A stretch of DNA of 39,742 bases. Source: a virus. Taxonomy: Duplodnaviria > Heunggongvirae > Uroviricota > Caudoviricetes. The position numbers were made by a program, and so were the translations under genes. This document shows positions 12,006-39,742 of the stretch, one piece after another; positions within the stretch are counted from its first letter, which is position 1, and each line of letters begins with the position of its first letter. Location: the IMG/VR virus record IMGVR_UViG_3300012943_000001, positions 1-39,742 of that record. One strand, written 5' to 3'. The notes beneath the pieces are model-generated. The model did no database searches. It saw nothing but the letters and a program-made list of their open reading frames with translations, and was not told where the DNA came from.

Positions 12006-14099
12006 ATGGCAGACAAACAAAAACGCTCATACACCTTCAGAAACCAAGCTTATTGGGACAGTTTGAAGGCCCCAAAATCACAGCCGCAGCCTAATCTTAT
12101 CAAGACTGAGGTTCGTGATGCGAATTGGGCTCCGTTAGGTACTGCCTCTGTATCTACCGCGTCCACCTACACACCCGGGGCTAAAGGTCGTGGAGCAACA
12201 ACAACTCGTAAGAACTATGTTTCTACGAATGAGCTTGAAGACAGGTATGCGTGCCTAAACGCAATGTCTCTTCCGTATTTTGAAGAGGGTGGGAGAATCA
12301 GCATTAGTGATACGATTTACTTGTGCCAAAAAGTTTACGCCAATATTGGTATCTTCCGCAATACGGTCGATATCATGACCGAGTTCGGTGCTTCTCCAAT
12401 TTACTTGGAAGGCGGCAACGAGGCGAGCAAGACGTTTGTTGAAAATTGGCTCAAGAAGATTAACGAGCCGAAGCTTACAGAAGAAATCACCAGAGAGTGG
12501 TATCTCACAGGTAATGTATTCGTATTTCGCTTTGACGGTATTTGGAGCGACGAAGATTTCAAAGAATTGAAGAAGGTATATGCAGCAAAGTCTAATAAGC
12601 TTCCTGCCCGCTATACAGTCTTGAATTCTGCTCACATCGTAGTTTTCCCAGCGGCATCTTTCGACCACAACCCTTATAGGAAAGTTCTTAGCCCTTACGA
12701 AATTGAGAAGCTTAGAATCAGAGAGACGGACGAAGACAAAGCGATTTGGAAAGCTCTTCCTGAAGACGTTAAGAAGCAAATTGAGAATAAACAGTACGGC
12801 TCTGATGGTATTTGGATGCCAATCCCATCTGACAAACTTACAGCCCTATTCTACAAGAAGCAACCTTACCAAGCGTTCGCTACTCCATTCGGCTACCCTG
12901 TATTCAAAGACTTGAATCACAAGGAAGAACTCAAGAAGATTGACCAAGCCATTTCTCGTACAATTGAGAACGTGACTCTTCTTATCACGATGGGTGAAAA
13001 GAAAGACCCGTTGACGGGTTATGGCGGCATGAACCCAACGGCGATGGAAAAGATGCAGGAGCTTGTGGCTAATCAAAGCGTTAGCCGTGTCATCGTATCT
13101 GACTACACAACAGAGATGGAATTTGTCATCCCTCAGATTGGCGACATTCTAAATCCACAGAAGTACGAAATCGTCAATCAGGATATTAAGGAAGGTTTGT
13201 TGAACGTTCTTTCTGGTGACGACAAGTTCGCCAATGCAGTGATGAAAACCAAGATTTTCTTGGAAAGACTTAAGGAAGGTCAGAAGACTTACCTTAATCA
13301 ATTCTTGCAGCCTGAAATCAACAAGGTCTGTAAAATCATGGGCTTTAAGAAAGTCCCTACGGCGAAGTTCCAAGAGATTGACCTTAGAGACGAAGTACAA
13401 TTCGCGAAGTTATTTACCCGTCTTATGGAAATCGGTATCCTTACTCCAAAGCAAGGTAAGAGAGCATTGGAGACGGGCATCCTTCCTGAAGAGTCAGAGA
13501 TGGACGCAGCTCAAGCAGAGTACGTAGAGCAGCGTAAGAAGGGCATGTGGAACCCTCTTCTTGGTGGCGTACCTATGGCTATTTCTCCTGATGCGGAAGC
13601 TAACAGAAAACTTAACAAAGAGCTTGGGGACCAGAAGATGGCTCAACAGGCCGCTAAGACAGGTGGAGCCTCCAATCCAAACGCAACTAATAATGGTCGT
13701 CCAGCAGGTACAACCGCTCCTCAATCTACAAAAGAGACCGCTCCAGTAGGAACATCTACGGCCAAACTATTTACGGTGGGCGGACTTAGAAATACGATGC
13801 AGTGCGTATCTGACTTGATGAATTCGGCAGAAGCAGAAGTCAAGTCTAAGTATAACATCGCAAGTCTTAACGAGGCTCAAAAAGATATGGTCTTCAAGCT
13901 TAGTCGTGCAGTTATCAGCACGACAAAGAAAGAAGATTGGCCTTCACAGCTTGCCGCTGTTCTAAAGGAACCGGAAAAACACCTAGCTTCATTCACGAGA
14001 AACGAAATTTCTCAGGCTGTGGAAGAACTTGCGGCAGAGCATCAAGTTGATACGTTCTCCGCTTCACTTCTTTATCACAGCAAATGTCCAAAACAGTAA
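12006..14099 (+). CDS. portal protein
   Basis: 697 aa directly after terL; portal-like segments (YANIGIFRNTVDIMTEF, WYLTGNVF, GILTP); low-complexity linker and C-terminal extension. Confidence 0.75.
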   Translation: MADKQKRSYTFRNQAYWDSLKAPKSQPQPNLIKTEVRDANWAPLGTASVSTASTYTPGAKGRGATTTRKNYVSTNELEDRYACLNAMSLPYFEEGGRISISDTIYLCQKVYANIGIFRNTVDIMTEFGASPIYLEGGNEASKTFVENWLKKINEPKLTEEITREWYLTGNVFVFRFDGIWSDEDFKELKKVYAAKSNKLPARYTVLNSAHIVVFPAASFDHNPYRKVLSPYEIEKLRIRETDEDKAIWKALPEDVKKQIENKQYGSDGIWMPIPSDKLTALFYKKQPYQAFATPFGYPVFKDLNHKEELKKIDQAISRTIENVTLLITMGEKKDPLTGYGGMNPTAMEKMQELVANQSVSRVIVSDYTTEMEFVIPQIGDILNPQKYEIVNQDIKEGLLNVLSGDDKFANAVMKTKIFLERLKEGQKTYLNQFLQPEINKVCKIMGFKKVPTAKFQEIDLRDEVQFAKLFTRLMEIGILTPKQGKRALETGILPEESEMDAAQAEYVEQRKKGMWNPLLGGVPMAISPDAEANRKLNKELGDQKMAQQAAKTGGASNPNATNNGRPAGTTAPQSTKETAPVGTSTAKLFTVGGLRNTMQCVSDLMNSAEAEVKSKYNIASLNEAQKDMVFKLSRAVISTTKKEDWPSQLAAVLKEPEKHLASFTRNEISQAVEELAAEHQVDTFSASLLYHSKCPKQ

Positions 14100-16522
14100 G
14101 ATATGATACGCTGGCCGTCTTTGTAGGCCCTACAAAGGTTCAAGGCAGCTACACTAGTGGTGAAATCACTCAGCTCCATAGAATTCAGAGTTCTGAATAT
14201 GGAATTGAAATTCAACGCGAAAATGTACAGGGGCTTGGTACGGCCAATGTTTTAGACGGAGTTTTGCAGAGTCCTTTCGTGAATTTGAACTTCGAGTATC
14301 TTGTCACGGACGGTGCGAACGAAAAAGCTTTGGGGCTGGTTGTTGACGGCTCTCACGGAGCGTTAATCAATGTTGAAAGTGGTCAGAATGACTATTTCAT
14401 GCTTATCGACAAGACGCCAAAAATGGTTCTTGCGGTTGGTAACGGCATGTTAGAGAGATATGCGGTTAATGGAAGGGTCGGTGGCTTTTTACAGGCTACC
14501 GCAGGCGTACGAGCTTTCAATATCAAGTTAGACGAAGGTACTTCAGGCAACCCTACGCCAAGAGTTGATTTGTATGGTAATACGAACGGCTCAACAAGCT
14601 ATCATCTTCCTGATGTAACGGATGGAATCTCTAACAGGGAAGACGGTTACATAGAAAGCAATATCTACATCGGTCCTAAAGACATACAAGTCGCCTTCAC
14701 AAATGGTTCTGCTTTTGGCATGATTCTTAGTGGCCAAGGAGCGTCTTACCTTCAAAGTTTCGATTTAGCTATTAATCTAGAGAGAAGCGAAGTCGCAAGA
14801 CTTGGGGAAAAATATCCGTTCTCAAGATGCCTTAAGCTTCCTGTAGACATCTCTCTTAGGACTGAATTTGTGTTAAGTAATTTTACAGCGGACCAAATTC
14901 AAAACTATCTCTGCCAAAATACTTACGATATTGACATTGATATCAAAGACAGCAAATGCACCCAAATTGGTGAAGACTGGGATACCGTAAACAACATCTC
15001 TAAACTCAAATATACATTTCGTGGTTTGAAGTTTAAGGGAATGTCTACTTCTGACTCTATCAATAATAGAAAAACCGTAGATATTGAGTGGGGAGTTCAG
15101 GTAGGTAATCTACTCGACCTTCAGAAAAATCTTTTCATTAGTGGAAATTTTGGTCGATACGTTTTTCCTCCAGAAGCGTGGAGATACGTATCTGGCGAAC
15201 AAGGTATTACTGGCTACGGAGTTCGTCCATTGGTTAAAGAGATTACTTACAAACGTGTAAAGGCGGACGCAGCTTTCCCAGACTTCTATTTAGATTTCTC
15301 TGGAGAATTCGATATCAGAGCCTCAGATATAGACTACGCTTCTCTACAATACAGAGGTACGACAGGCATCTGGGATATTTCTGGTGATTTTGGAGAAGGT
15401 TTGACGAAGGAAAGTTTCGTATGGAACTCAGACTCTTTTTCTACTAGCTACGAAGGGCTTCCACGCTCTGGATTTGCTGAAAAGTTTTCTAATCTAAAAG
15501 CGGCATACTATATTGGCTTCCCTGAGCATCAAGACGCTCATTCTGGAATAAACTACTTCTTCACAAAAGGAGTTGGTTTGAACTACGAGCCAATGACGTA
15601 CACAATCTCTAACATTCCTTCTTACGCTCGTGCGTTTGTGACTTCTGGAAAAGCGTACATGGACGCATACGAACCATACTACTTCAATATTCTGAATATT
15701 GCCGTCACGGACCCACTCTTCCCTACGGGACAATCTTTCACGTTTGACGTTATTGCGGCCACCCCAAAAATTAAAAGAGTCTACACTATTTCTGCGACGA
15801 CTCCTTATAGTCACCATATCAATTTACCAAGGGCTTACTCAGGAGGTTCGAATATCTGGATTGAGGGTTACGACCCAATCAATTTCTCTACTTCAGGCTC
15901 TACGATTACTTCTTTGGTAGAAAACTCTTTTAAGCGTAGAGGTTACAATGCTATAGGTGCCCCTCAGTACAACTTCCAAGGTCTAAACGGAAGCTCATTT
16001 TTGGAGTTCGGTACATCAGATTATGTTCAGTACACTGGCCTTACTAGAGAAGACCATACCCGCTTTACCTACTTTGTACTCACAAGTGGAACCGCTTCGT
16101 CTGACGCCAACGCATCTATTCTACATTTTCACAACAACCGTGTAACCAACACGGGCTTGGGAACTACAGGATTTTCTGGTCATTTTGGCATTTATAGAGA
16201 TGGAAGTTCTGAAAACATGGCGATGTATTCTTCTAGCCTTACGTCAGGTAACAAGTTCGTCATTCCGTCTGGATTTCAGTATGATACATGGACAATCAAT
16301 ACTTTTTATTTCGACGGCTCAGTAATTAGAGGTAGAAGAAATGGAACCCAAGTTCCTATCAGCGGAACATCTTCTCAAGCTGGAAATAATTTCTACACTC
16401 ATTTGACCGTGGGCTCAGGATTTAATGGAGGCATCGCAGAAATCATTGGCTTTCCTTATCAAATGACGAGCGAAGATATGAGTAATATCGAAGATTACCT
16501 TAGATTTAAGTGGGGTGTTTAA
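14084..16522 (+). CDS. tail-tube-like domain fused to a beta-rich / LamG-like C-terminal region
   Basis: N-terminal ~355 aa is colinear with 27885 (QLHRIQS/QLHRVQS, YLVTDGANEKALGL/YYLTNGVNEKRLGL, LFISG); C-terminus GGIAEII...IEDYLRFKWG is typical of concanavalin-A/LamG-like phage domains. Confidence 0.7.
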   Translation: MSKTVRYDTLAVFVGPTKVQGSYTSGEITQLHRIQSSEYGIEIQRENVQGLGTANVLDGVLQSPFVNLNFEYLVTDGANEKALGLVVDGSHGALINVESGQNDYFMLIDKTPKMVLAVGNGMLERYAVNGRVGGFLQATAGVRAFNIKLDEGTSGNPTPRVDLYGNTNGSTSYHLPDVTDGISNREDGYIESNIYIGPKDIQVAFTNGSAFGMILSGQGASYLQSFDLAINLERSEVARLGEKYPFSRCLKLPVDISLRTEFVLSNFTADQIQNYLCQNTYDIDIDIKDSKCTQIGEDWDTVNNISKLKYTFRGLKFKGMSTSDSINNRKTVDIEWGVQVGNLLDLQKNLFISGNFGRYVFPPEAWRYVSGEQGITGYGVRPLVKEITYKRVKADAAFPDFYLDFSGEFDIRASDIDYASLQYRGTTGIWDISGDFGEGLTKESFVWNSDSFSTSYEGLPRSGFAEKFSNLKAAYYIGFPEHQDAHSGINYFFTKGVGLNYEPMTYTISNIPSYARAFVTSGKAYMDAYEPYYFNILNIAVTDPLFPTGQSFTFDVIAATPKIKRVYTISATTPYSHHINLPRAYSGGSNIWIEGYDPINFSTSGSTITSLVENSFKRRGYNAIGAPQYNFQGLNGSSFLEFGTSDYVQYTGLTREDHTRFTYFVLTSGTASSDANASILHFHNNRVTNTGLGTTGFSGHFGIYRDGSSENMAMYSSSLTSGNKFVIPSGFQYDTWTINTFYFDGSVIRGRRNGTQVPISGTSSQAGNNFYTHLTVGSGFNGGIAEIIGFPYQMTSEDMSNIEDYLRFKWGV

Positions 16523-19948: not shown

Positions 19949-20389
19949 ATGAAACTACAATACAAATCCAAGTTTGAAAAGTTTGCAAAAGATTTTGCGA
20001 CTCACATCAAAGCTGAAAGACAGCTTGACTCCACTATTACGGAACAAGATGGCGTATACACAGTTGAGTATTCCATCGCGGACTACTGCGGAGAGAAATC
20101 AGAGAGTGGCGACAAACCGTGTAATCCGACCTTTGACGACCTTTCTAGATGGGCACGTTATATTTTCGACGAAATTCAATACCAATCTAATTGGTTTGCC
20201 GCAAGAATTTCTTACGTTGAAAATGAATTCTACAGACATATCTCAAGTGGTCACTTACCTCCAATCGAAGGTCCAGAGAAAATGCAGAAGGCTATCGACG
20301 CTCTTGGTATTGGCGGGGATTACAAGGTAGAAAAGAGAACAGTTTACGCATCCACAATCGAAGTTGATTTTCCTGACACTAAGAAATAA
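19949..20389 (+). CDS. hypothetical head-operon protein
   Basis: 146 aa, GAGG upstream, TAATG-coupled to the protease gene. Confidence 0.7.
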   Translation: MKLQYKSKFEKFAKDFATHIKAERQLDSTITEQDGVYTVEYSIADYCGEKSESGDKPCNPTFDDLSRWARYIFDEIQYQSNWFAARISYVENEFYRHISSGHLPPIEGPEKMQKAIDALGIGGDYKVEKRTVYASTIEVDFPDTKK

Positions 20390-22080
20390 TGTCTAAAGTC
20401 TTCCCATATAAAGCACGCTTCGGAGGAGGCGTGGTTAAAGCTTCTGTCGATGAAAGCATAGATAAATATCTAAGTAAGGCTTCGCTTGAAGATTTGAAGA
20501 AGCTCGACATTAACTCTATCGTCAACTTGGAAGACAATGTTGACCTTATTGGAACCGTATTCAATGCTGCGGTAATCAACCGCCTAAACAAGAACGATGA
20601 CGGTATTTCTACGGAAACCGCATTGGCAATCAAAGATTTGTTCGCTCATAAGCCTCATAATCTTGAGCACAAGAGCCAACGCATCGTAGGTCATATTGTA
20701 AAAGCTGGTTGGAGCACTTATGGCGGAAATCAAATGATTTCTGACGAAGAGGCGGCAAAGCTTACGGAGCCGTTTAACTTGGTTCTTGGTGGCGTAGTTT
20801 ATAGAACCATCGACGAAAAGTTTGCAGACCTTTTAATTGAAGCGTCCGACGAGTCTAGCGACAAATACATGATTATCGCTACGAGTTGGGAGATTGCTTT
20901 TACGAAGTATAATTTGGTCCTTGGCAGTAAGAATGTCAATGAGGCAGAAATCGTTTCCGACCCTGATAAAATCGAAGAACTCAAGCAACACTTGAGATGC
21001 AATGGTGGAACAGGCAAGCTACCTGACGGTAGATACATTGGAAGATTAATCGTGGGTGGAGTTGGAGATGTTTTGCCTATAGGCGTCGCATTTACAACAA
21101 GACCCGCTGCGGACGTTGAAGGCGTTTTATCATTTGATTGGAGTCAGGTAGAAGAGTCTGTAGCGAAAGCAGAAGATGATGACACTGATGAAGATGAAGA
21201 GGATGAAGACGACGAAGAAACTCCAGAAAACAAAGACAAAAAGAACGATAAAAACACTGAAGAAGACGAAGAAGACGACGAAGAAAAAGACGATAAAGAA
21301 AAAGACGAAAGTCTCTCTTCTACACAAAAAAGTGAAAATAATAGTTCCCAAATAATAGAATCAGTTGTAAAGAACAATAATCAAGAAAATATTGCTATGA
21401 AATTCAAAAACATTCAAGAATTGGTTGCCGCAGTCGCTTCTAAAACAAGCGTAAGTGAGGCATCCGTCTCCGAGTTCATCCAAGAACAAATCGAGCTTAA
21501 GAGCAAAGAGTTTGAGACGAAGGCGAACGAGAAAGAGACAGCACTTAAGACAGCTTCCGAGAAAGCTGCACAGCTTGAAGCTGACCTTGCTACAGCAAAC
21601 GCAAAGATTGCCGAAGTACAAGCATCTCTTCAAAAGCTTGAGTCCGAAGCTTCCGCAAAAGCAAAGCAAGAATCTTTCCAGACAAGAATGTCTGCACTAG
21701 CTAACGAATTTGAACTTTCTGATAAAGAGTCCGCTCTTATCACAAAAGAAATCGTAGGTCTTGACGACACGGCATATGCTTCTTGGTACGAGAAGTTCTC
21801 TGTCCTTGCTGACAGCAAGAAGAAGACAGTTATCGCTGCTGCAAAAGAAGCTTTTGATACAAAAGTTAAGGAAGAGGCTATCAAGCTTTCTGAGGCATCT
21901 AAGTCCACAGCTTCCGTAACACCAGCCCCAACCGCTGAGACTGCTGCGGCAGCTCTTGAGAAGGTCACAGAGGCTCCAAAACAATCCATCGCAAACGTTA
22001 CTACTCCTGAGACAAAGACAGATTTCAGAAAAGAGTGGGCTGACGCTTTCGGTGGCACAAACCTTATCGTAACTAAATAA
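20389..22080 (+). CDS. prohead protease / scaffold fusion
   Basis: N-domain with NKNDD, KPHNLEH..IVGHI, SWE, AFTTRPA; D/E-rich linker; C-terminal coiled coil; position before the capsid genes. Confidence 0.7.
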   Translation: MSKVFPYKARFGGGVVKASVDESIDKYLSKASLEDLKKLDINSIVNLEDNVDLIGTVFNAAVINRLNKNDDGISTETALAIKDLFAHKPHNLEHKSQRIVGHIVKAGWSTYGGNQMISDEEAAKLTEPFNLVLGGVVYRTIDEKFADLLIEASDESSDKYMIIATSWEIAFTKYNLVLGSKNVNEAEIVSDPDKIEELKQHLRCNGGTGKLPDGRYIGRLIVGGVGDVLPIGVAFTTRPAADVEGVLSFDWSQVEESVAKAEDDDTDEDEEDEDDEETPENKDKKNDKNTEEDEEDDEEKDDKEKDESLSSTQKSENNSSQIIESVVKNNNQENIAMKFKNIQELVAAVASKTSVSEASVSEFIQEQIELKSKEFETKANEKETALKTASEKAAQLEADLATANAKIAEVQASLQKLESEASAKAKQESFQTRMSALANEFELSDKESALITKEIVGLDDTAYASWYEKFSVLADSKKKTVIAAAKEAFDTKVKEEAIKLSEASKSTASVTPAPTAETAAAALEKVTEAPKQSIANVTTPETKTDFRKEWADAFGGTNLIVTK

Positions 22081-26849: not shown

Positions 26850-27818
26850 ATGTCTTTATTCTATCAATCTGAAATCGTTAAAATCTACGTCTCCGGCCAG
26901 CCGCTTGGAGAAGTATTTCCTAACGTACAAAGCGTCAGCACGGCTTTTACAGTGCAGCGTGTAGATAATATGCGTCTTGGTCGCTTTGCACCAATGCCAT
27001 ACAGACAGTCTAATCAAGACCCTGTAGTGACAATGAATCTCGACTTTATTCCTACAGGCAATAACATTTTCCGCTCTCTTGGTTTGCTTGGCACTGGTTC
27101 TGCGATTGATAATCTTGCAACGGGTGTAAATAGAATTTACGACTTCAAGATTCAAGTCAGGGAAATGGTTGGTGGTGGTTCTGCTGTAGGTACGTTCAAT
27201 CTAAGGTCTGGTGTTCTTACGAATTATTCTTTCCAAGCTGCCGTAGGACAAACTCCTCGTAGCAGCATTGCTATTGAATTTTTGGACTTGGGTATGGATG
27301 CGGTCACCTCCGTCACTCCTCCACAAATCGACGACGGATATCCAACGCTACGACCTCAAGACATGCAACTTACTTTGCCTTCTGGTCTATTCGGCGTCAG
27401 GACCGTTTATCCACAAAGCTTCACAATGACGCTACCTCTTCCAAGAGCAAACGTTCTTAAGCTTGGTCAAAGAAAAGCGGTCTCACGTGAACTACAGTCT
27501 CCAATCGTTGCAAGCTTCCAATTGCAAGCCATCATTGAAACTTTTGATAGCACAAGCGATGTTAACGGTAGCTCTGCTCAAATGTTTGGGCTAACATGTG
27601 GACGCTTCTTGGAATCTGATTTAGTCGTTGATATCAAGACACCTACGTGTACTGGTGGAGCGTCTTCTACAATGCTTAAATACACTCTAAGAAAACCTTA
27701 TCTCGATAGCGTGAACTTTTCCAATGCTGTCGGAGGGTATACATCTGTAGAAATGCAGTTCACTGTCCCTGTAACTATGGAAAACAATTTGAATGAGAGC
27801 AACTTGGTTATTTCCTAA
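26850..27818 (+). CDS. tail tube protein paralog
   Basis: YQSE, VQS, LTNYS..AAVG, LRP, LG.K..SRE.Q.P, LDS..FS..G shared with 27885. Confidence 0.7.
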   Translation: MSLFYQSEIVKIYVSGQPLGEVFPNVQSVSTAFTVQRVDNMRLGRFAPMPYRQSNQDPVVTMNLDFIPTGNNIFRSLGLLGTGSAIDNLATGVNRIYDFKIQVREMVGGGSAVGTFNLRSGVLTNYSFQAAVGQTPRSSIAIEFLDLGMDAVTSVTPPQIDDGYPTLRPQDMQLTLPSGLFGVRTVYPQSFTMTLPLPRANVLKLGQRKAVSRELQSPIVASFQLQAIIETFDSTSDVNGSSAQMFGLTCGRFLESDLVVDIKTPTCTGGASSTMLKYTLRKPYLDSVNFSNAVGGYTSVEMQFTVPVTMENNLNESNLVIS

Positions 27819-27884: not shown

Positions 27885-28985
27885 ATGGCAACAAGAAAAA
27901 GAGTCATTTACCAATCTGAGGCGGTCTACGTTGGCCCATCCCCAGCAACGGGCTTCAACTTCACCTCTGGTAACAGCGGTGACAATTTGATTTCCCAGCT
28001 TCACAGAGTACAATCTGCGAACTATTCTTTCAACGTCTCTCGTCAGGACATTAACCAATACGGTCAACTTGCCGCTATTGACAGAGTTATTCTTCAAGCT
28101 CCAACTGTCGCCCTTGACTTTTCCTACTACCTTACAAACGGTGTCAACGAAAAGCGTCTAGGTCTTAATATCGACGGTGCTCTTTCTGCTATTTCCGGTC
28201 TATTGAACGGTACGCAGGACGAAAAGAACTACTACATCTCCACTTCTCCAGAAGGTACGGACAACGTAGGTGCAAACGCGGCGGCACGTGAAGTCTTCGC
28301 TATTGGTAACGGCTTCTTGTCTAACTACTCTATCGAAGCAGCGGTTGGTGGTCTTCCAACAGCCTCCGTTTCCGTTGAAGCTCTTAATATCAAGGTTGAC
28401 CCAACAGCAGCAGGCAACCCAACTCCAGCAGTTAACCCAGAAGACGGTCTTGCTATCGCAGGCGTTAACTACAGCCTTCCAGTCGCAGTTGCGGGCGTTC
28501 CGGGACAAATCTCCGCTCTTCGTCCGGGCGACATCACGGTTGACGTTCAAACTCCATTCGGTGCTAAGGTATCCGGTGAAGGTAAAGCTCACTTCCAAAA
28601 CGTTTCTATTCAGGTTCCTCTTTCTAGAGAGCCATTGGAGCGTCTTGGTTCTAAGTTCGCTTTCTCTCGTGAAATTCAATACCCACTTACGGTTACATTC
28701 AATGCGACAGCTAACCTTGCAGACTTGCAATCCGGTAACTTGTCCAACATCCTATGTAACGACGAAAACTACGACTTGCAGCTTACGCTTCGTGAGCCAT
28801 CTTGCTCTGGTGTCGGTCCAATCGCTATGATTTACCAACTTAAGGGTGCGAAGCTTGACTCTCAGTCCTTCAGCTCTTCTATCGGTTCTAACAAGTCTGT
28901 TGACCTTACATGGTCCGCACAGATTGGTGGTCCACAAGACACAACCAAGGGCTTGTTCATCAGCGGTTCTTACGTTGGTTCATAA
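27885..28985 (+). CDS. major tail tube protein
   Basis: 366 aa, MCP-like codon bias, own promoter and terminator, upstream of the chaperones and TMP. Confidence 0.75.
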   Translation: MATRKRVIYQSEAVYVGPSPATGFNFTSGNSGDNLISQLHRVQSANYSFNVSRQDINQYGQLAAIDRVILQAPTVALDFSYYLTNGVNEKRLGLNIDGALSAISGLLNGTQDEKNYYISTSPEGTDNVGANAAAREVFAIGNGFLSNYSIEAAVGGLPTASVSVEALNIKVDPTAAGNPTPAVNPEDGLAIAGVNYSLPVAVAGVPGQISALRPGDITVDVQTPFGAKVSGEGKAHFQNVSIQVPLSREPLERLGSKFAFSREIQYPLTVTFNATANLADLQSGNLSNILCNDENYDLQLTLREPSCSGVGPIAMIYQLKGAKLDSQSFSSSIGSNKSVDLTWSAQIGGPQDTTKGLFISGSYVGS

Positions 28986-31235: not shown

Positions 31236-34200
31236 ATGGCAGACGATTTTCCAATTATTCTTCAGGCAAGAGCGGACACAAAGCAGTTCGAGCGAGACAT
31301 CGCGGCTGCAACAGAGCGTGCAGGAAAGAATATCAAACCGCTTCCACTTGGAAAAATCACGGGTCAATTCACTGAGTTTAATAAGTCTCTTGACGCCGCT
31401 ACTGCCCGTGTTATTACGTTCAGTGCCACAACTGGTATCATCAATGGTGTAGTCAATGCTTTCAAAGCGTTGGTTAAAGAAACTGTTGCCGTAGAGAAGG
31501 CTCTCGCAGATATCAATACGGTTTTGAATACCAACCAAAAAGGGTTGGAGGCTTTCAGAGGCGAACTTTTCAACATCGCTCGCAATACAGCTCAGAGCTT
31601 TAAGACTGTTGCTGAAGCAGCGGTCGAACTTTCCCGTCAAGGTTTGAGTGTCACTGAGACGCTTAAGAGAACAAATGACGCGATGGTTCTTTCAAGAATC
31701 TCCGGTTTGGACGCGGCTCAGGCCGTTGATACTCTTACGGCAGCGATGAACGGTTTCCAAAAGGCCGCTCTTGATACAACTACTGTCGTCAATTCTTTGG
31801 CGAGAGTCGATTCTAACTTCGCTGTTAGTACGAAAGACTTGGCAGACGCTTTGACACGTGTGGGCTCTACGGCTGACGATGCGGGCGTATCTTTCAATGA
31901 GCTTCTTGGTGCGGTCACCGCAGTTCAACAGACAACCTCTCGTGGTGGTGCTGTCATCGGTAACGCTTTCAAGACAATCTTTACGAGATTGAACCGTGCA
32001 GATACGGTCACTCAACTTAGAGAATTGGGCGTCGCTATCGACGAGTCCCAAAACGGTATTCAGAAGCTTCAAGCTATCTCTTCCGCCATCAAGAACGTTG
32101 ACTCCGCTACGGCAAACACAATCAAGGAACTTGCCGGTGGCGTCTTCCAAATCAACGTCGTCTCCGCTGCATTGGGCGACTTGAGCAAAGAGTATAGCAT
32201 CTACGCAAACGCCGTCAAGATTGCAGGCCAGTCTACAAATGACGCTATCAAGCGTAATGAAGACTTGAACAAGACTCTTGCCGCTTTGAGCAGCCAGTCT
32301 CTTACAAATATCCAAGACCTTCTTTCCAAGATTGGTAATATTTCTCTTGGTAACAACCTTAAGAATCTTTTTGCAAGTTTCAATGGTATTACCAAAGCTC
32401 TTTCTGAATCTTTAGATGGAGAAAGTATTGGTGCAGACCTTGGTAAGGGTGTTTTGGCTGGCCTTGGTAACTTTCTAACGGGTCCGGCTGTAATCGTTGT
32501 GTTCGGTGGTCTTCTTAAACTTGCTACTCAAGTTGGAAAAGATATTGCCGCATCTTTCAGACAGACTGTAGGTATCACTACTGAAGCCGACAAGCAAAAG
32601 CAACTTCAAACTCAAATCAGTTCTATTCTTCAGCAGAATGACGCTTTGTATGGTAAGTATTTGAATACTTCTAAGGGCGTCGCTCTTGTACAATCTGAAA
32701 TTCTTGGTATCTTGAAGGCTCAGGCGGCAGCAAGTCAGAATATCATTTTAGCTTCTAATACTATCGCTAAAGGAGTCTCACCGCAATTCACAAGGGCGAA
32801 GACAGGTAATCTCGTCGCAAAAAACGCGGCATCGGGTCTTATTCCTGCGTTCGCAGCCGAGTCTTCCGCTATCAAGCGTGGCGTAGGTGGAGCGAGTGGT
32901 AATGAGAAGTTGGCTTACATTCCTTCTTTCAATTATGGTGGAGGTAAGAAAGGTCCGGTCGTAGCAAACACGGGTGAAGTGGTTGTAGAAAACTTCTTGG
33001 GCGGAGATGCGAGTGCAATCCTTACGAAGGATATGATTGAGGCTCTTGGCGGCGAAGACAAGCTTGGTTTGCTAGGCGATGTCAAAGAGTTTGCTGCGGG
33101 CTTTATTCCGGGCTTCGTCAAAAAGACCTTTATGAAGGGTGCGGAGTTTATTGGGGACGGAGCTTACGGCAATGTTTTCAAGAATGAGTCTTTGGCTGGT
33201 GTTAAAGGTCTTCCTGACCTTGTGTTCAAAGAGTTCAAGCCGGGCAATGACGCTGGCGGTACTCGCGACCCAATCGCCGCAGAGTACAACGAATTTAAGT
33301 TGGCTGAAAAAATGGGGCTTCCTGTCGCTAAAGTTTTTGGCTCTTTATCTCGTAGTAAGAAACGTGGCGGAATATTCAAAGAGCGTGTTGACGGACCTCA
33401 TGGAGATGATTTCTTGGATATTCTTAATTCAGGAGAAAGAAGGGAGTTTAGCTTCTCTCTTAGAAAAATGTTCAATGACAAAGGTCTTGACGCGGGCGAC
33501 CTTCATGGCGGAAACTATAAAGTCCAAGACGATATTGGAGAATTAAAGAAAGTTTATCAATCTGAAGGCTACGAGGCGACAAAGGCTCGTGCCTTGTCTA
33601 AAGTAAAATTCTTCGACGGATTCTTTAAGTCTTCTTCCCCTGAAGCGTCTAAGGCTATTAAGGAAATTGTCGCCTCTAACAGGGCAGAGGGTTACGTCCC
33701 TGACTTGGCGTCCGCTATGTCTAGAGAAGTCGTGGCTCTTATAAAGATGGGTTATCCAAAAGATAAGGCTATCAAAGCGGTTGAGGTCGGTAAAGAACCT
33801 GTCCTTAAGAACTCCAAGAATCCAGAAGGTCTCGGCGTATACAATACTATCCAAGGTCAGACATCTCTTGCTGACGCGTTCAGTGACCATAAGGGTGAGA
33901 ACTGGAAAGTTTCTGGTAAGGCTCGTGGGCACGTTCCAAATCTTGCGTTAGAAGGTGACGACGCACTTCGTTTACAGGCTGCTTCTATCAAATTTGGCGG
34001 CATCGAAAAGGCTATTCAATCTATCGACCTTTCTAATATCGACTTCACAACAGCGGAGTCCACAATTAACAAAAAACTTAAAAAGGCGGTAGAGAAGGGT
34101 CTTGATATCGACTTCTCTTCAATGTCTCGCACAGTGGCGAAGAATTTCAAGGACAATTTGTTCAAGGAAATCAAAGAGGTTCGTGGACCAGAAATCGAAG

Positions 34201-37200: not shown

Positions 37201-39742
37201 TTGAGGGTAGCATCGAATCATATGACAAGAAAATTGCTGCTACGGTTCCTGCGGCCACAACCTCAGTTCCTACTGCATCTAACGCTCCCGCTACTGTAAT
37301 AGCAAAGCCTTCTGCACCCGCACTGATTGGTACGACGCAGAGTGCTGGATTGGCCGCTGAGTTCGTAAAGGTTTCTGAATCCGCAAAGCAAGTCACAGAG
37401 TCTCTAAACCAGACGACGACTTCTTTGGATGGATTTACAAGCAACGTTGCCGAGCTTAATAGATTTGGTAACAACTCTCAGGTCGTAGCGAATCTTAAGA
37501 CGGCGGATAAAGCGGTCGAACTTGGAGGCGGCAAGAATAGAAATCTTGATAGAGCACAATCTCAGGCTCAGGCGGACCTTCTTAGAGTCGCACAGTCTCA
37601 ACAGTTCAACCTTGGACAAATCAATCCTGCGTTGCAGGGCGATGTAAACGCTGTTCGTGACGACAAGAGCGTACAAGCTAAATTGGGCGAACTTAACGCT
37701 GATGCATCATTCCAAGGCTTGATTGACGACGCGAACGATGCGTTCGTAAGCGGATTCGCATCTGACGCAGAGATGAAGAAGGTTGGTATCAGAATCTCTC
37801 AAGGCTTGAACGAATATGTAGACTCTCAAGTTAAGCTTGGTGTTGACCAAAAAGACGCAGAGGCAGACGCAAAGAGACTTCGTGACAAGTATCAAGAGCA
37901 GCTTAACAAGCTTAAGATTAACATTCCTAAGTCTGAACTTGGTCAGTTCGGTCAAGGCTTCTCTGCTCGTATCAGTGAATTGAAACAGGACTTCAATGAT
38001 GTTGGTCAGTTGGGTGCTCAAACCGCAGACTCTTTGGTAGACGGTTTCGGAGACGCATTCGTTGATATCATCTCTGGTGCTCAAGACGCTGAGACGGCTA
38101 CTCGTCAACTTCTTTCTTCTATCGCTGCGGACCTTGCAAAGTTCTACGCTAAGAAAGCTCTTACAACAGCAATCACCGCAGGCGTATCCGCAGCCGGATA
38201 CAATCAGGGTGGCGTAGTCAAGAGAGCCGCAGGCGGAGCAATCGGAAAAGTTCCCGCAGTCGTTATGGGCGGCGAATATAAGTTCGGACCTGATGTCGTT
38301 AAGGCATACGGCAAAGACTTCTTCAAAGACCTCAACGCAGGTAAGATTGAGGCTCCAAAATACGCAACTGGTGGCGTTATGAACGCTAACGGTAGTGGTA
38401 TGATTTCTGGTGGCTCTGGAAACAAAGACGACATCTTCTCTCAATTTGATGAAGGTTCCTTCATTCTTAGAAAGAGTGCTGTCAAGAAGTATGGTAAAAA
38501 CTACCTAGACCAAATTGCCGCAGGCGGTGCTTCTGGTTATAACAAGGGTGGCAAAGTTCAGAAGGCGTTCTGGGGTGCTCTTATCGGTCAAATCATCGGT
38601 GGTGCCGTACAAGGAGCCGCAGTTGGTGCGGTCACCGCAGAAGTCTCTGGTGGAGATTGGAAGAAGGGTGCAATGTATGGAGCTATCGGTGGTGGTATTG
38701 CCGGTGGTATTGGTGGCGTAGGCTATGCAAACTCTAATCCAAATGCTGGTTTTGGTGGCGGATTCAAAAACTCCTTCAGTTGGACTGGCATGGGACAAGG
38801 CACGGACGGAGCTGGTGGTAACGGTGGAAGTCTTACAACAAGCTCCAACACGGCTACGGGCTCAGGTTCTACGGGAGCGACGGGCACAATCTTCGATAAT
38901 CCGAATCTCGTAGCCGACTCAAAAATCAACACGGACCTATCTCTTTCTGGTGCGAACAGAGGTTACGCTTCTGGCGTCGGTAATAATTCTCTTAGCATCG
39001 GTCAGACAAAAGCTACGGGCGTAGCTGGTGCAAAGTCTCCTTGGTACAAACAAGCGGGTGCTCAACTCGCGGTCGCGGGTGCGGGCATGGCTGCTTCTAT
39101 GGCCCTTGCTCCAAAGACTCCAAAAGAACAAGTACGTAGTGCCGAGTCTTGGGGCTCCGTCACGACTTACAATACTGACGGAAGCGTTGCAATTAATACT
39201 GGTAATGGTATCAAAACAGTTCGTCCGGGCATCGACTTTAACTCTACTGCCGAACTAGAAGACATCGTTCGCCGTAGTGGTGGACAAGCTAGAACATATG
39301 CGACGGGTGGAAGCATCACAAGCGGTTCTGGCCGTACGATGATGCGTCCAATGAATACGATGGCTCGTCCGCAAGTCATGTCTGGTTCTGGTAACAAAGA
39401 CGACGTATACGCTAAACTTAAGAAGGGTGAGTTCGTTCTTAACGATAGAGCGAACAGCATGTACAATAGGAATGGTCTTGTCGATAGAATGAATCGTCAA
39501 GAACTTGACCCTGAAGAGTTGGATAGAAGCATGGGTATTATGAAGTTCAATGATGGTGGCCCAACTTCACCCGAATCTTCTAGCGGCGGTGGCAACTTCA
39601 GTCTAGGCCAAAAGAGCCAGTCTCCAGCGGCTCCTACCCAAGCGGCAAGTGGCGGCATCAACATCGAAATCAATGTAACGATTGGTGCGGGCGGTGAGGC
39701 TTCAATGACAACAAAATCTGAGGGTGACGAAAAGAAAGGCGG
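31236..39742 (+). CDS. tail tape measure protein (3'-truncated, >2835 aa) with embedded kinase-like domain
   Basis: ATG GCA GAC GAT TTT at 31236; TP901-type core (VEKALADINTVL..ELSRQGL..TLTAAMNGF..IGNAFKTIFTR); no stop in the parts translated; none of the + ORFs in the track here use this frame. Confidence 0.9.
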   Translation, partial: MADDFPIILQARADTKQFERDIAAATERAGKNIKPLPLGKITGQFTEFNKSLDAATARVITFSATTGIINGVVNAFKALVKETVAVEKALADINTVLNTNQKGLEAFRGELFNIARNTAQSFKTVAEAAVELSRQGLSVTETLKRTNDAMVLSRISGLDAAQAVDTLTAAMNGFQKAALDTTTVVNSLARVDSNFAVSTKDLADALTRVGSTADDAGVSFNELLGAVTAVQQTTSRGGAVIGNAFKTIFTRLNRADTVTQLRELGVAIDESQNGIQKLQAISSAIKNVDSATANTIKELAGGVFQINVVSAALGDLSKEYSIYANAVKIAGQSTNDAIKRNEDLNKTLAALSSQSLTNIQDLLSKIGNISLGNNLKNLFASFNGITKALSESLDGESIGADLGKGVLAGLGNFLTGPAVIVVFGGLLKLATQVGKDIAASFRQTVGITTEADKQKQLQTQISSILQQNDALYGKYLNTSKGVALVQSEILGILKAQAAASQNIILASNTIAKGVSPQFTRAKTGNLVAKNAASGLIPAFAAESSAIKRGVGGASGNEKLAYIPSFNYGGGKKGPVVANTGEVVVENFLGGDASAILTKDMIEALGGEDKLGLLGDVKEFAAGFIPGFVKKTFMKGAEFIGDGAYGNVFKNESLAGVKGLPDLVFKEFKPGNDAGGTRDPIAAEYNEFKLAEKMGLPVAKVFGSLSRSKKRGGIFKERVDGPHGDDFLDILNSGERREFSFSLRKMFNDKGLDAGDLHGGNYKVQDDIGELKKVYQSEGYEATKARALSKVKFFDGFFKSSSPEASKAIKEIVASNRAEGYVPDLASAMSREVVALIKMGYPKDKAIKAVEVGKEPVLKNSKNPEGLGVYNTIQGQTSLADAFSDHKGENWKVSGKARGHVPNLALEGDDALRLQAASIKFGGIEKAIQSIDLSNIDFTTAESTINKKLKKAVEKGLDIDFSSMSRTVAKNFKDNLFKEIKEVRGPEIEEQQTVLRQQQAKAQQAREATEFRKRLVQTNTRTVSPEEFAKNQRANSIPFDDTDFDKEVQQVVAAQQKAKKSAVTNLRKLRQKNYEDAFAQATEEINKRSAFSPQTSARILKKIDTSKLTVEQRESLGLDVRQVSRAQRRQAFGGTAGIGLSIGASLASPLLFQGAQGIRNGAGNRALTGGERAGAAALETAGGAANALSFAAPFASALGPVGLAATAAAGAIFSLADALDDSDEEAARLTRTFEDMQAKNTAFVNSFSTYIQTQEKLGSLINSGGRDGDIQAVSKELTKVFATIDDEGARRDILSSNGDISKLSEAFAKAQTRVFANQSVAAAVTTAAQSKDDRTTLGVRTGNASASAVTGISRSLISALDTKKLGEFSQKLEAAKDNLTETSFVEAFEGTGVAKDQIKSIFDSLGDGVSRLSLLNSLIKESSITQELQQSIQKASDAKRAITDLNKVLGTITAIQSLDRRAGLGREANSFAVQQNAGQNQAASRFFNVGEIGQAQVSTAFQTKQVQFDAAQERERETLDLKDALSSFASENRDSLSVAANKDIADALNKFVETGQGNLGELANRALQTGVGTGENAKSFSELAQLIAASNARLSSIDDNAQTQIQILRQNLDAVKERVTLENRLNTLGGASGQIDFGSNGFDRIRNRDVNAELSTRSGVTGQFGRSEQAQGIIEFQNAFSKLEGFDARDVIPNAEQLVRDSIRESLIQGFTRIGVELDSNKLKEINSIADVSASKQFEKRELTADAIGEAVNSKFAYDRLVAGNEQGMASALTSTNVAANTSAAPKILEVLKERFGLQKEREGERLALTGLNTEKTSAETKISQLTSDSRKVVATQAKIVNKGENTYGPVFDEGVKKAVVQQMGLIENSNIPGARYRRDTESFEFARLGEGKSLEEFRKTLDDILNSTNFDRGKRFVAAGLNASGFVESASDGKNRVSEAGFAKLIERLESSGVVSVDKTGQEKIDANNAEIQRLRDSISALTPQISKLEGSIESYDKKIAATVPAATTSVPTASNAPATVIAKPSAPALIGTTQSAGLAAEFVKVSESAKQVTESLNQTTTSLDGFTSNVAELNRFGNNSQVVANLKTADKAVELGGGKNRNLDRAQSQAQADLLRVAQSQQFNLGQINPALQGDVNAVRDDKSVQAKLGELNADASFQGLIDDANDAFVSGFASDAEMKKVGIRISQGLNEYVDSQVKLGVDQKDAEADAKRLRDKYQEQLNKLKINIPKSELGQFGQGFSARISELKQDFNDVGQLGAQTADSLVDGFGDAFVDIISGAQDAETATRQLLSSIAADLAKFYAKKALTTAITAGVSAAGYNQGGVVKRAAGGAIGKVPAVVMGGEYKFGPDVVKAYGKDFFKDLNAGKIEAPKYATGGVMNANGSGMISGGSGNKDDIFSQFDEGSFILRKSAVKKYGKNYLDQIAAGGASGYNKGGKVQKAFWGALIGQIIGGAVQGAAVGAVTAEVSGGDWKKGAMYGAIGGGIAGGIGGVGYANSNPNAGFGGGFKNSFSWTGMGQGTDGAGGNGGSLTTSSNTATGSGSTGATGTIFDNPNLVADSKINTDLSLSGANRGYASGVGNNSLSIGQTKATGVAGAKSPWYKQAGAQLAVAGAGMAASMALAPKTPKEQVRSAESWGSVTTYNTDGSVAINTGNGIKTVRPGIDFNSTAELEDIVRRSGGQARTYATGGSITSGSGRTMMRPMNTMARPQVMSGSGNKDDVYAKLKKGEFVLNDRANSMYNRNGLVDRMNRQELDPEELDRSMGIMKFNDGGPTSPESSSGGGNFSLGQKSQSPAAPTQAASGGINIEINVTIGAGGEASMTTKSEGDEKKG
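33120..33680 (+). other. protein-kinase-like domain inside the tape measure protein
   Basis: IGDGAYGNVF (33150), VFK (K at 33228), AAEY, GLPVAKV, FKERVDG, GDLHGGN (33495), KFFDG (D at 33615). Confidence 0.75.

Follow-up and report, generated by a model that had tools for sequence, protein, structure and literature searches.

In siphophages, the tape measure protein (TMP) occupies the tail lumen, from which it is ejected. Cleavage and ejection of TMPs are known for lambda gpH and T5 pb2, and it has been reported that an unknown protease cuts gpH once the tail has been assembled and that gpH* enters the cell envelope; the lumen of the lambda tail measures 3-4 nm, the phages discussed have 3-6 TMP copies per virion, and several known TMPs carry a peptidoglycan hydrolase, which acts on the cell wall (PMC12617516, available parts). 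Siphophages are regarded as ill suited to effector injection (PMC9503650, available parts).

The polyvalent and MuF effectors are polypeptides linked to virion genes which contain disparate enzymes and for which injection and processing have been proposed (PMC5512222, main text). T7 gp0.7 and JSS1_004 represent phage kinases acting on host proteins and defences; the T7 kinase (T7K) is the product of an expressed early gene, possesses a DNA-binding shut-off domain, and disarms defences after expression (PMC13645617, available parts). Minimal kinases with a reduced C-lobe include Bud32/PRPK, RIO, and OspG/NleH. In the Rhs and CDI polymorphic toxins, a conserved carrier bears exchangeable enzyme cassettes past a boundary motif.

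The locus described here lies in a window of 39,742 nucleotides (the whole stretch of phage DNA analysed), in which an earlier note had placed a protein-kinase-like domain inside a TMP. The kinase belongs to a polymorphic array with motif-delimited units, in which it is one of the exchangeable cassettes; that note does not mention this arrangement. In contrast to known TMP enzymes, the cargo of such arrays is internal and polymorphic and includes ATP- or NAD-dependent and nuclease-like types. ART-PolyVal, truncated kinases without a C-terminal subdomain, and an HExxH-like peptidase are domain types common to polyvalent proteins and TMP cargo (PMC5512222, main text); the whole C-terminal subdomain is lost in the polyvalent kinases as well as in the TMP kinase. 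The carrier of the former is a head or MuF protein, whereas here it is a TMP with a recurrent peptide motif and two modules, A and B. MuF gave no match in the window TMP or in the 28 full-length relatives scanned. Compared with Rhs and CDI proteins, TMP cargo is internal, often multiple, and not a C-terminal toxin. A classical polymorphic toxin was rejected because of the internal cargo and because, in the window genome, the gene after the TMP encodes gpM and no immunity gene is present. A TMP-borne enzyme array was not found in the literature searched (mostly open access, abstract level) or in the available parts of PMC7824862 and PMC9503650; "tape measure" has no occurrence in the main text of PMC5512222, the supplements of which could list TMP fusions, and "tape" has none in the available parts of PMC9503650. 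The words of the delimiter motif were met in one unrelated paper only.

The carrier is a genuine TMP, as had been supposed. Its open reading frame (ORF), starting at 31236, matches PhageMin_Tail at aa 116-296 (Pfam search, E 2.9e-26) and seven TMP PHROGs. Terminase and portal genes lie upstream, and the genes 3′ of the TMP encode two gpM proteins, gpL, gpK (JAB and NlpC), a product in the gpI position with no match in the Pfam search, and gpJ. From this lambda-type H-M-L-K-I-J order a siphophage tail may be inferred; the TMP gene position before M-L-K-(I)-J is shared with lambda. The ORF was correctly described as stop-free in the window, and it ends just past it, at genome position 39869. The phage genome is one contig of 205,462 bp and is considered circular because its start recurs at 205,339. 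A search of 50,697 phage records with the putative major capsid protein gave no match, and hence no cultured relative emerged from them. Besides the hydrophobic segment before the array (Table 1), a second one was located at aa 1193-1211 by the same Kyte-Doolittle scan, and both may have a membrane role. Toward the C-terminus, three repeats occur (window 38190-38560 and 39300-39560) with bounds [FY]-[AN]-x-G-G-x-[VI] and core G-[ES]-[FY]-[VI]; they are found in relatives too, and their homology to modules A or B is undetectable.

The translation of 33090-33701 is stop-free in the frame of the TMP ORF and contains in order all the kinase motifs quoted in the earlier note. A stop or frameshift between the kinase and the TMP was sought and none occurs, one frame running through to the end of the ORF. 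The G-loop (G640/G642/G645), the beta3 Lys (K665, codon start 33228), the helix-C Glu (E683, 33282), the catalytic Asp (D755, 33498) and Asn (N760, 33513), and the Mg-binding Asp (D794, 33615) are present in kinase order. Over 27 aligned kinase domains, D755, N760, and D794 are each found in 27/27, K665 in 26/27, and E683 in 24/27, while the three glycines of the GxGxxG loop are kept in 26, 27, and 21. The replacement by Ala of the usual His before GD in the DLHxxN region was read correctly, but it is no oddity: position −2 relative to the catalytic Asp holds Pro in 13/27 domains and Ala in 10/27, so that an absent His is normal for this family, and the His of DLH itself occurs in 9/27 only. 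A helical insert of variable length separates N760 from D794 (P0015 lacks it), and the cassette ends about 20 aa past D794, the C-terminal subdomain being missing.

The AF2 model of the cassette (pLDDT 95, pTM 0.88) has a bilobed kinase fold. Foldseek against the PDB returned 226 matches at E≤0.001, and among the 49 matches listed (ranks 1-50) all are kinases, the top ones being PRPK/Bud32 (E 4.8e-6), Rio1 (8.3e-5), and OspG (1.5e-4), in keeping with the RIO/Bud32-like style that had been recognized. TM-scores against solved kinases are just ~0.4-0.57 and therefore the fold does not fix the substrate class. Profile searches of PDB sequences yielded kinases only, each match being weak (41/41 at E≤1; 24/24 at E≤0.1 if the effector kinase NleH1 is included). 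Since the window domain alone has no sequence match in Pfam, PHROG, or the PDB, the assignment is based on conservation and fold, and on these grounds we are confident that the domain adopts a protein-kinase-like fold with a complete predicted catalytic set.

A phmmer search with the kinase domain over 1.84 billion representative sequences (E≤0.001) gave 22 matches, of which one is a 224-aa fragment with the boundary motif, one a false match with Ig repeats, and the other 20 are PhageMin_Tail TMPs; by this count (20/22), the domain is confined to TMPs. Among 6550 candidates no stand-alone homologue of 84-445 aa was scored, although apparent look-alikes exist as clusters of short viral proteins in the ESM Atlas. 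The kinase domains of relatives are ~17-45% identical to that of the window, P0004 aside, which is 72.6% identical in the kinase and 81-82% in the flanks. The kinase is a minority cargo: the loci retrieved with the module A pattern have it in 2/90 TMPs, and the set that also takes in kinase-selected proteins has it in 24/118. In a quick tree of TMP N-termini, the deep branches of which are weak, TMPs with a kinase are dispersed over clades that have other cargo.

Membership in described kinase families was also considered. The polyvalent kinase family was rejected, as the conserved Gln is absent and the last N-lobe strand ends in K715 (25/27) and E716 (22/27). That family has a Glu ahead of strand 2 and an insert between a conserved His and Asp; in the TMP kinase the insert lies between N760 and D794, with the His in 9/27. 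The Pfam polyvalent-kinase model, presumably Kinase-PolyVal, matched 0/21 members at E≤1 and 0/6 at E≤10, provided that the Pfam copy used contains it. The T7 gp0.7 family was likewise rejected (hhalign probability 2.2% over 26 columns only), and the TMP kinase lacks the shut-off domain. The divergent DFG-like motif starts with D-P both in T7K (D-P-V) and in the TMP-kinase consensus (D-P-G), whereas the window member has D-G without Pro. The "kinase" PHROG 18305 matches 3/21 members (best E 0.004). The reduced C-lobe is common to the TMP kinase and to Bud32, RIO, and OspG, from which it differs by its 15-18% identity, TM of ~0.44-0.57, and variable helical insert before the Mg-binding Asp; the Bud32 and RIO family HMMs gave no family match, RIO1 matching weakly in 1/21 members (E 0.022).

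The array is delimited by a peptide motif with the core A-x-G-[YF]-[IV]-P-N-F-A and the full consensus [RGN]-[AG]-[AS]-x-G-[YF]-[IV]-P-N-F-A, which has 287 matches in 84 TMPs and 0 in shuffled sequences. The motif matrix was trained on the same TMPs, and its low-scoring matches include a word inside module A; in the shuffled control, 1 match scoring at least 8 occurred in 95,983 residues. The order in the window TMP is motif-module A-motif-kinase-motif-module B-motif, and among the window phage ORFs of at least 120 aa the motif is present in the TMP only. The interval 33090..33701 previously assigned to the kinase holds for its core but not for its first and last ~30 nt, which belong to the delimiting motifs (33090-33119; 33681-33710).

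Table 1. Features of the TMP and its cassette array, in window coordinates.
Feature	Position	Strand	Evidence or remark
TMP, 2877 aa	31236..39742, runs to genome position 39869	+	PhageMin_Tail, TMP PHROGs, gene order
Hydrophobic segment before cassette array, aa 405-423	32448..32504	+	Kyte-Doolittle scan
Delimiter motif copy 1, aa 531-540	32826..32855	+	PSSM score 23.7; low-confidence linker in model
Module A, ~78 aa, alpha/beta, opens array, core V-A-N-T-x-E	32856..33089	+	hmm E 1.8e-23; 13 columns invariant across 43 relatives
Delimiter motif copy 2, aa 619-628, kinase N-terminal boundary	33090..33119	+	PSSM score 11.8; pLDDT <50
Minimal protein-kinase-like cassette, aa 629-815	33120..33680	+	Translation, alignment, AF2 model, Foldseek
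Delimiter motif copy 3, aa 816-825, kinase C-terminal boundary	33681..33710	+	PSSM score 12.7; pLDDT <50 mostly
Module B, ~70 aa, closes array, R-E, N-P-x-G, N	33711..33917	+	hmm E 2.1e-22; own fold in model
Delimiter motif copy 4, aa 895-904	33918..33947	+	PSSM score 21.2

The two copies which flank the window kinase are the most degenerate of the four. In a set of 27 kinase domains (L253 in place of P0008), the motif is found on both sides of 19, on one side of 6, and on neither side of 2. At identical motif residues, synonymous codon identity is 47.4% (1173/2473) within genes, against 42.2% expected from codon usage and 43.7% between genes; the motif is kept as peptide and not as DNA. In a model of aa 526-909 (pTM 0.52), module A (pLDDT 61-86), the kinase, and module B fold separately, with the motifs largely in linkers of pLDDT <50, and the delimiter motif is accordingly best described as lying in predicted flexible linkers. 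Degenerate variants ending in N-F-A, together with tandem motif-only repeats past the last cassette, were seen in P0014 and P0028.

Module A has no match in Pfam, PHROG, or the PDB, and module B no database match. The similarity between them is 92.6% with the motifs included and falls to E 0.05 without them, and module B is possibly a distant paralogue of module A. Module A stands behind the kinase or in duplicate in P0015, L037, and P0006, so that the modules, too, act like cassettes. The DNA pattern of module A was found in at least 120 viral and at least 119 metagenome loci, 80 of each with long flanks; 79 of the 80 long viral loci match the TMP N-terminus and 1 is cut before it.

The repertoire was surveyed in 120 TMPs, namely L240, L253, and 118 others that remained after dereplication at 90% on the N-terminus, 13/188 having been dropped for a short N-terminal match. 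They contain 173 cargo segments in 54 BLAST clusters, with 0-7 motif-bounded segments per protein; 40 clusters are singletons, some of which may be linkers, and the majority of clusters have no annotation. The window TMP has one segment and 40/120 have 2-7 (e.g., ART, GHKL, and DUF7178 in L180), whereas 22/120 are without cargo, in some cases owing to a cut locus; cargo is thus dispensable. Nuclease-like, P-loop, kinase, ADP-ribosyltransferase (ART), DUF7178, GHKL, and other types occupy the slot. ART-PolyVal matches P0016 with E 8.5e-22 and, more weakly, P0008, L180, and L240; DUF7178 has database support, that for GHKL, SNase, and P-loop cargo is weak, and in a Pfam scan of 50 cargo segments 1/50 exceeded the curated cut-off. 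The largest family, with no database match, has the pattern G-x-x-F-E...D-F...D-x-K, which we take from the motif to be PD-(D/E)xK nuclease-like. The labels HExxH-, ParB-, ATP-grasp-, HAD-, and GNAT-like are putative readings of motifs by eye.

Exchange is recent and occurs by whole cassettes. For example, L180 and L240 are 94.6% identical at the N-terminus and 97.3% in slot 4, whereas slot 2 is unrelated (8.2%), one protein having a GHKL-like and the other an ART-like domain there. P0007 and L253 are 87.6% identical, P0007 having one extra kinase, and P0013, the next-closest to the window TMP after P0004, has an additional cassette ahead of the kinase. A sub-clade formed by P0011, L056, L155, and L160 displays very long arrays (up to ~15 motifs and 4831 aa), in which one uncharacterised family is duplicated and motifs extend well into the C-terminal half. 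Cargo is strongly basic: 169/173 segments are net positive (median +5 per 100 aa), as compared with 99/236 N-terminal and 287/504 downstream blocks, the counts not being independent since 70 segments come from one family. The charge may point to nucleic-acid targets or to transit alongside DNA.

Our preferred reading, to which we assign a probability of about 0.55, is that the kinase cassette is carried unfolded in the tail, ejected, cut at the motifs, and refolded, and that it phosphorylates host proteins before phage expression. As part of the TMP, the cassettes would ride in a lumen which, if as narrow as that of lambda, requires the domain to be unfolded; the "ready-made" virion kinase of the earlier note is thus probably wrong, as refolding would follow ejection. 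TMP ejection would carry the cassettes into the host at infection, where they would be cut out at the flanking motifs by a candidate protease such as the gpK-like JAB/NlpC protein, a head protease, or a host protease. Within minutes, and ahead of phage gene expression, the refolded, catalytically competent kinase would then modify host proteins in an anti-defence or takeover role, much as T7K does once it has been expressed (PMC13645617, available parts). Unfolded transit would keep the kinase silent in the producer cell, and this would explain the absent immunity gene. Kinases, ARTs, and P-loop enzymes need ATP or NAD+, which makes a cytoplasmic destination likely. The dose delivered would be small, because there are only a few TMP copies per virion. 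More tentatively, and at odds which we place below even, the TMP may be an effector magazine throughout a widespread uncultured siphophage clade, a universal motif being read by a dedicated protease or by modules A/B so as to free, on injection into the host cytoplasm, an exchangeable set of effectors (kinases, ADP-ribosyltransferases, nucleases, and NTPases); non-contractile phages would thereby have a general route for protein delivery.

It is also conceivable, if somewhat unlikely, that the cassette is delivered uncut, as a loop on the ejected TMP between the hydrophobic segments, acting at the DNA entry site, with the motif serving as a chaperone-binding site, spacer, or translocation signal. 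Indeed, the hydrophobic segments (aa 405-423 and 1193-1211) flank the array, the motifs around the window kinase are degenerate, the analysis turned up no protease linked to the motif, and the N4 virion RNAP is packaged unprocessed (PMC5512222, main text). However, all cassettes are separated by the motif, with as many as ~15 copies in a single protein (P0011), and it lies in predicted disordered linkers; a repeated processing site fits this better than a single loop signal.

Independently of the route, and with the same delivery, the substrate may be something other than protein (a small molecule, sugar, lipid, or nucleic-acid end, as in APH/Kdo-like enzymes), which we regard as unlikely. Weak Pfam APH matches in 3/21 members (best E 0.17) and an ABC1 match in 1/21 point in this direction, as does the protein-binding C-lobe, which is largely missing; conversely, the best fold matches (PRPK/Bud32, Rio1/2, OspG) are protein kinases with reduced C-lobes, and the GxGxxG loop is well kept.

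A late polyprotein, with cassettes excised during tail assembly and acting in the producer cell or packaged in the head, is improbable in our judgement. The cleavage of lambda gpH after tail assembly (PMC12617516, available parts) and the processing of P1 DdrB and DarA before head packaging (PMC5512222, main text) are in line with it. The tail lumen is too narrow for folded enzymes, and whole cassettes are gained in close relatives with no known tail-length cost. Nevertheless, fusion to a stoichiometric tail protein would be an odd route for a late cytoplasmic enzyme, and the candidates screened include no stand-alone version of the kinase. Finally, a dead or neutral domain serving as length filler in the ruler is highly improbable, for D755, N760, and D794 are invariant despite the low identity to the window domain, although cargo is dispensable and the kinase diverges faster than its flanks between the window and P0004.

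If unfolded transit with release at the motifs, the reading preferred here, is true, the motif-delimited TMP slot would give phages a further way, next to the one already known, to bring counter-defence with the virion, effective ahead of transcription. Dozens of uncharacterised enzyme families would gain a built-in functional hint and precise boundaries. The motif would also offer a handle on TMP cleavage, of which protease and site are unknown even for lambda (PMC12617516, available parts), and the slot could serve as a natural insertion point for proteins to be loaded into phage tails.

Other observations concern the rest of the phage genome. In the window, a 563-aa ORF before the putative capsid genes (20389-22080; no match in Pfam or PHROG) has an acidic linker and a coiled-coil tail and is a candidate head protease or scaffold. 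The ORFs at 14084-16522, 26850-27818, and 27885-28985 have similar tail-tube-like N-termini by eye and gave no Pfam or PHROG tube match. Elsewhere, the N-termini of ORFs at G000:C1:82497-84059 and 119205-133823 suggest, by eye, TROVE-like, WGR/ART-like, vWA, phosphatase-like, and NAD-salvage functions. ARAGORN identified 48 tRNA genes, most of them in one large cluster (G000:C1:156400-173100).
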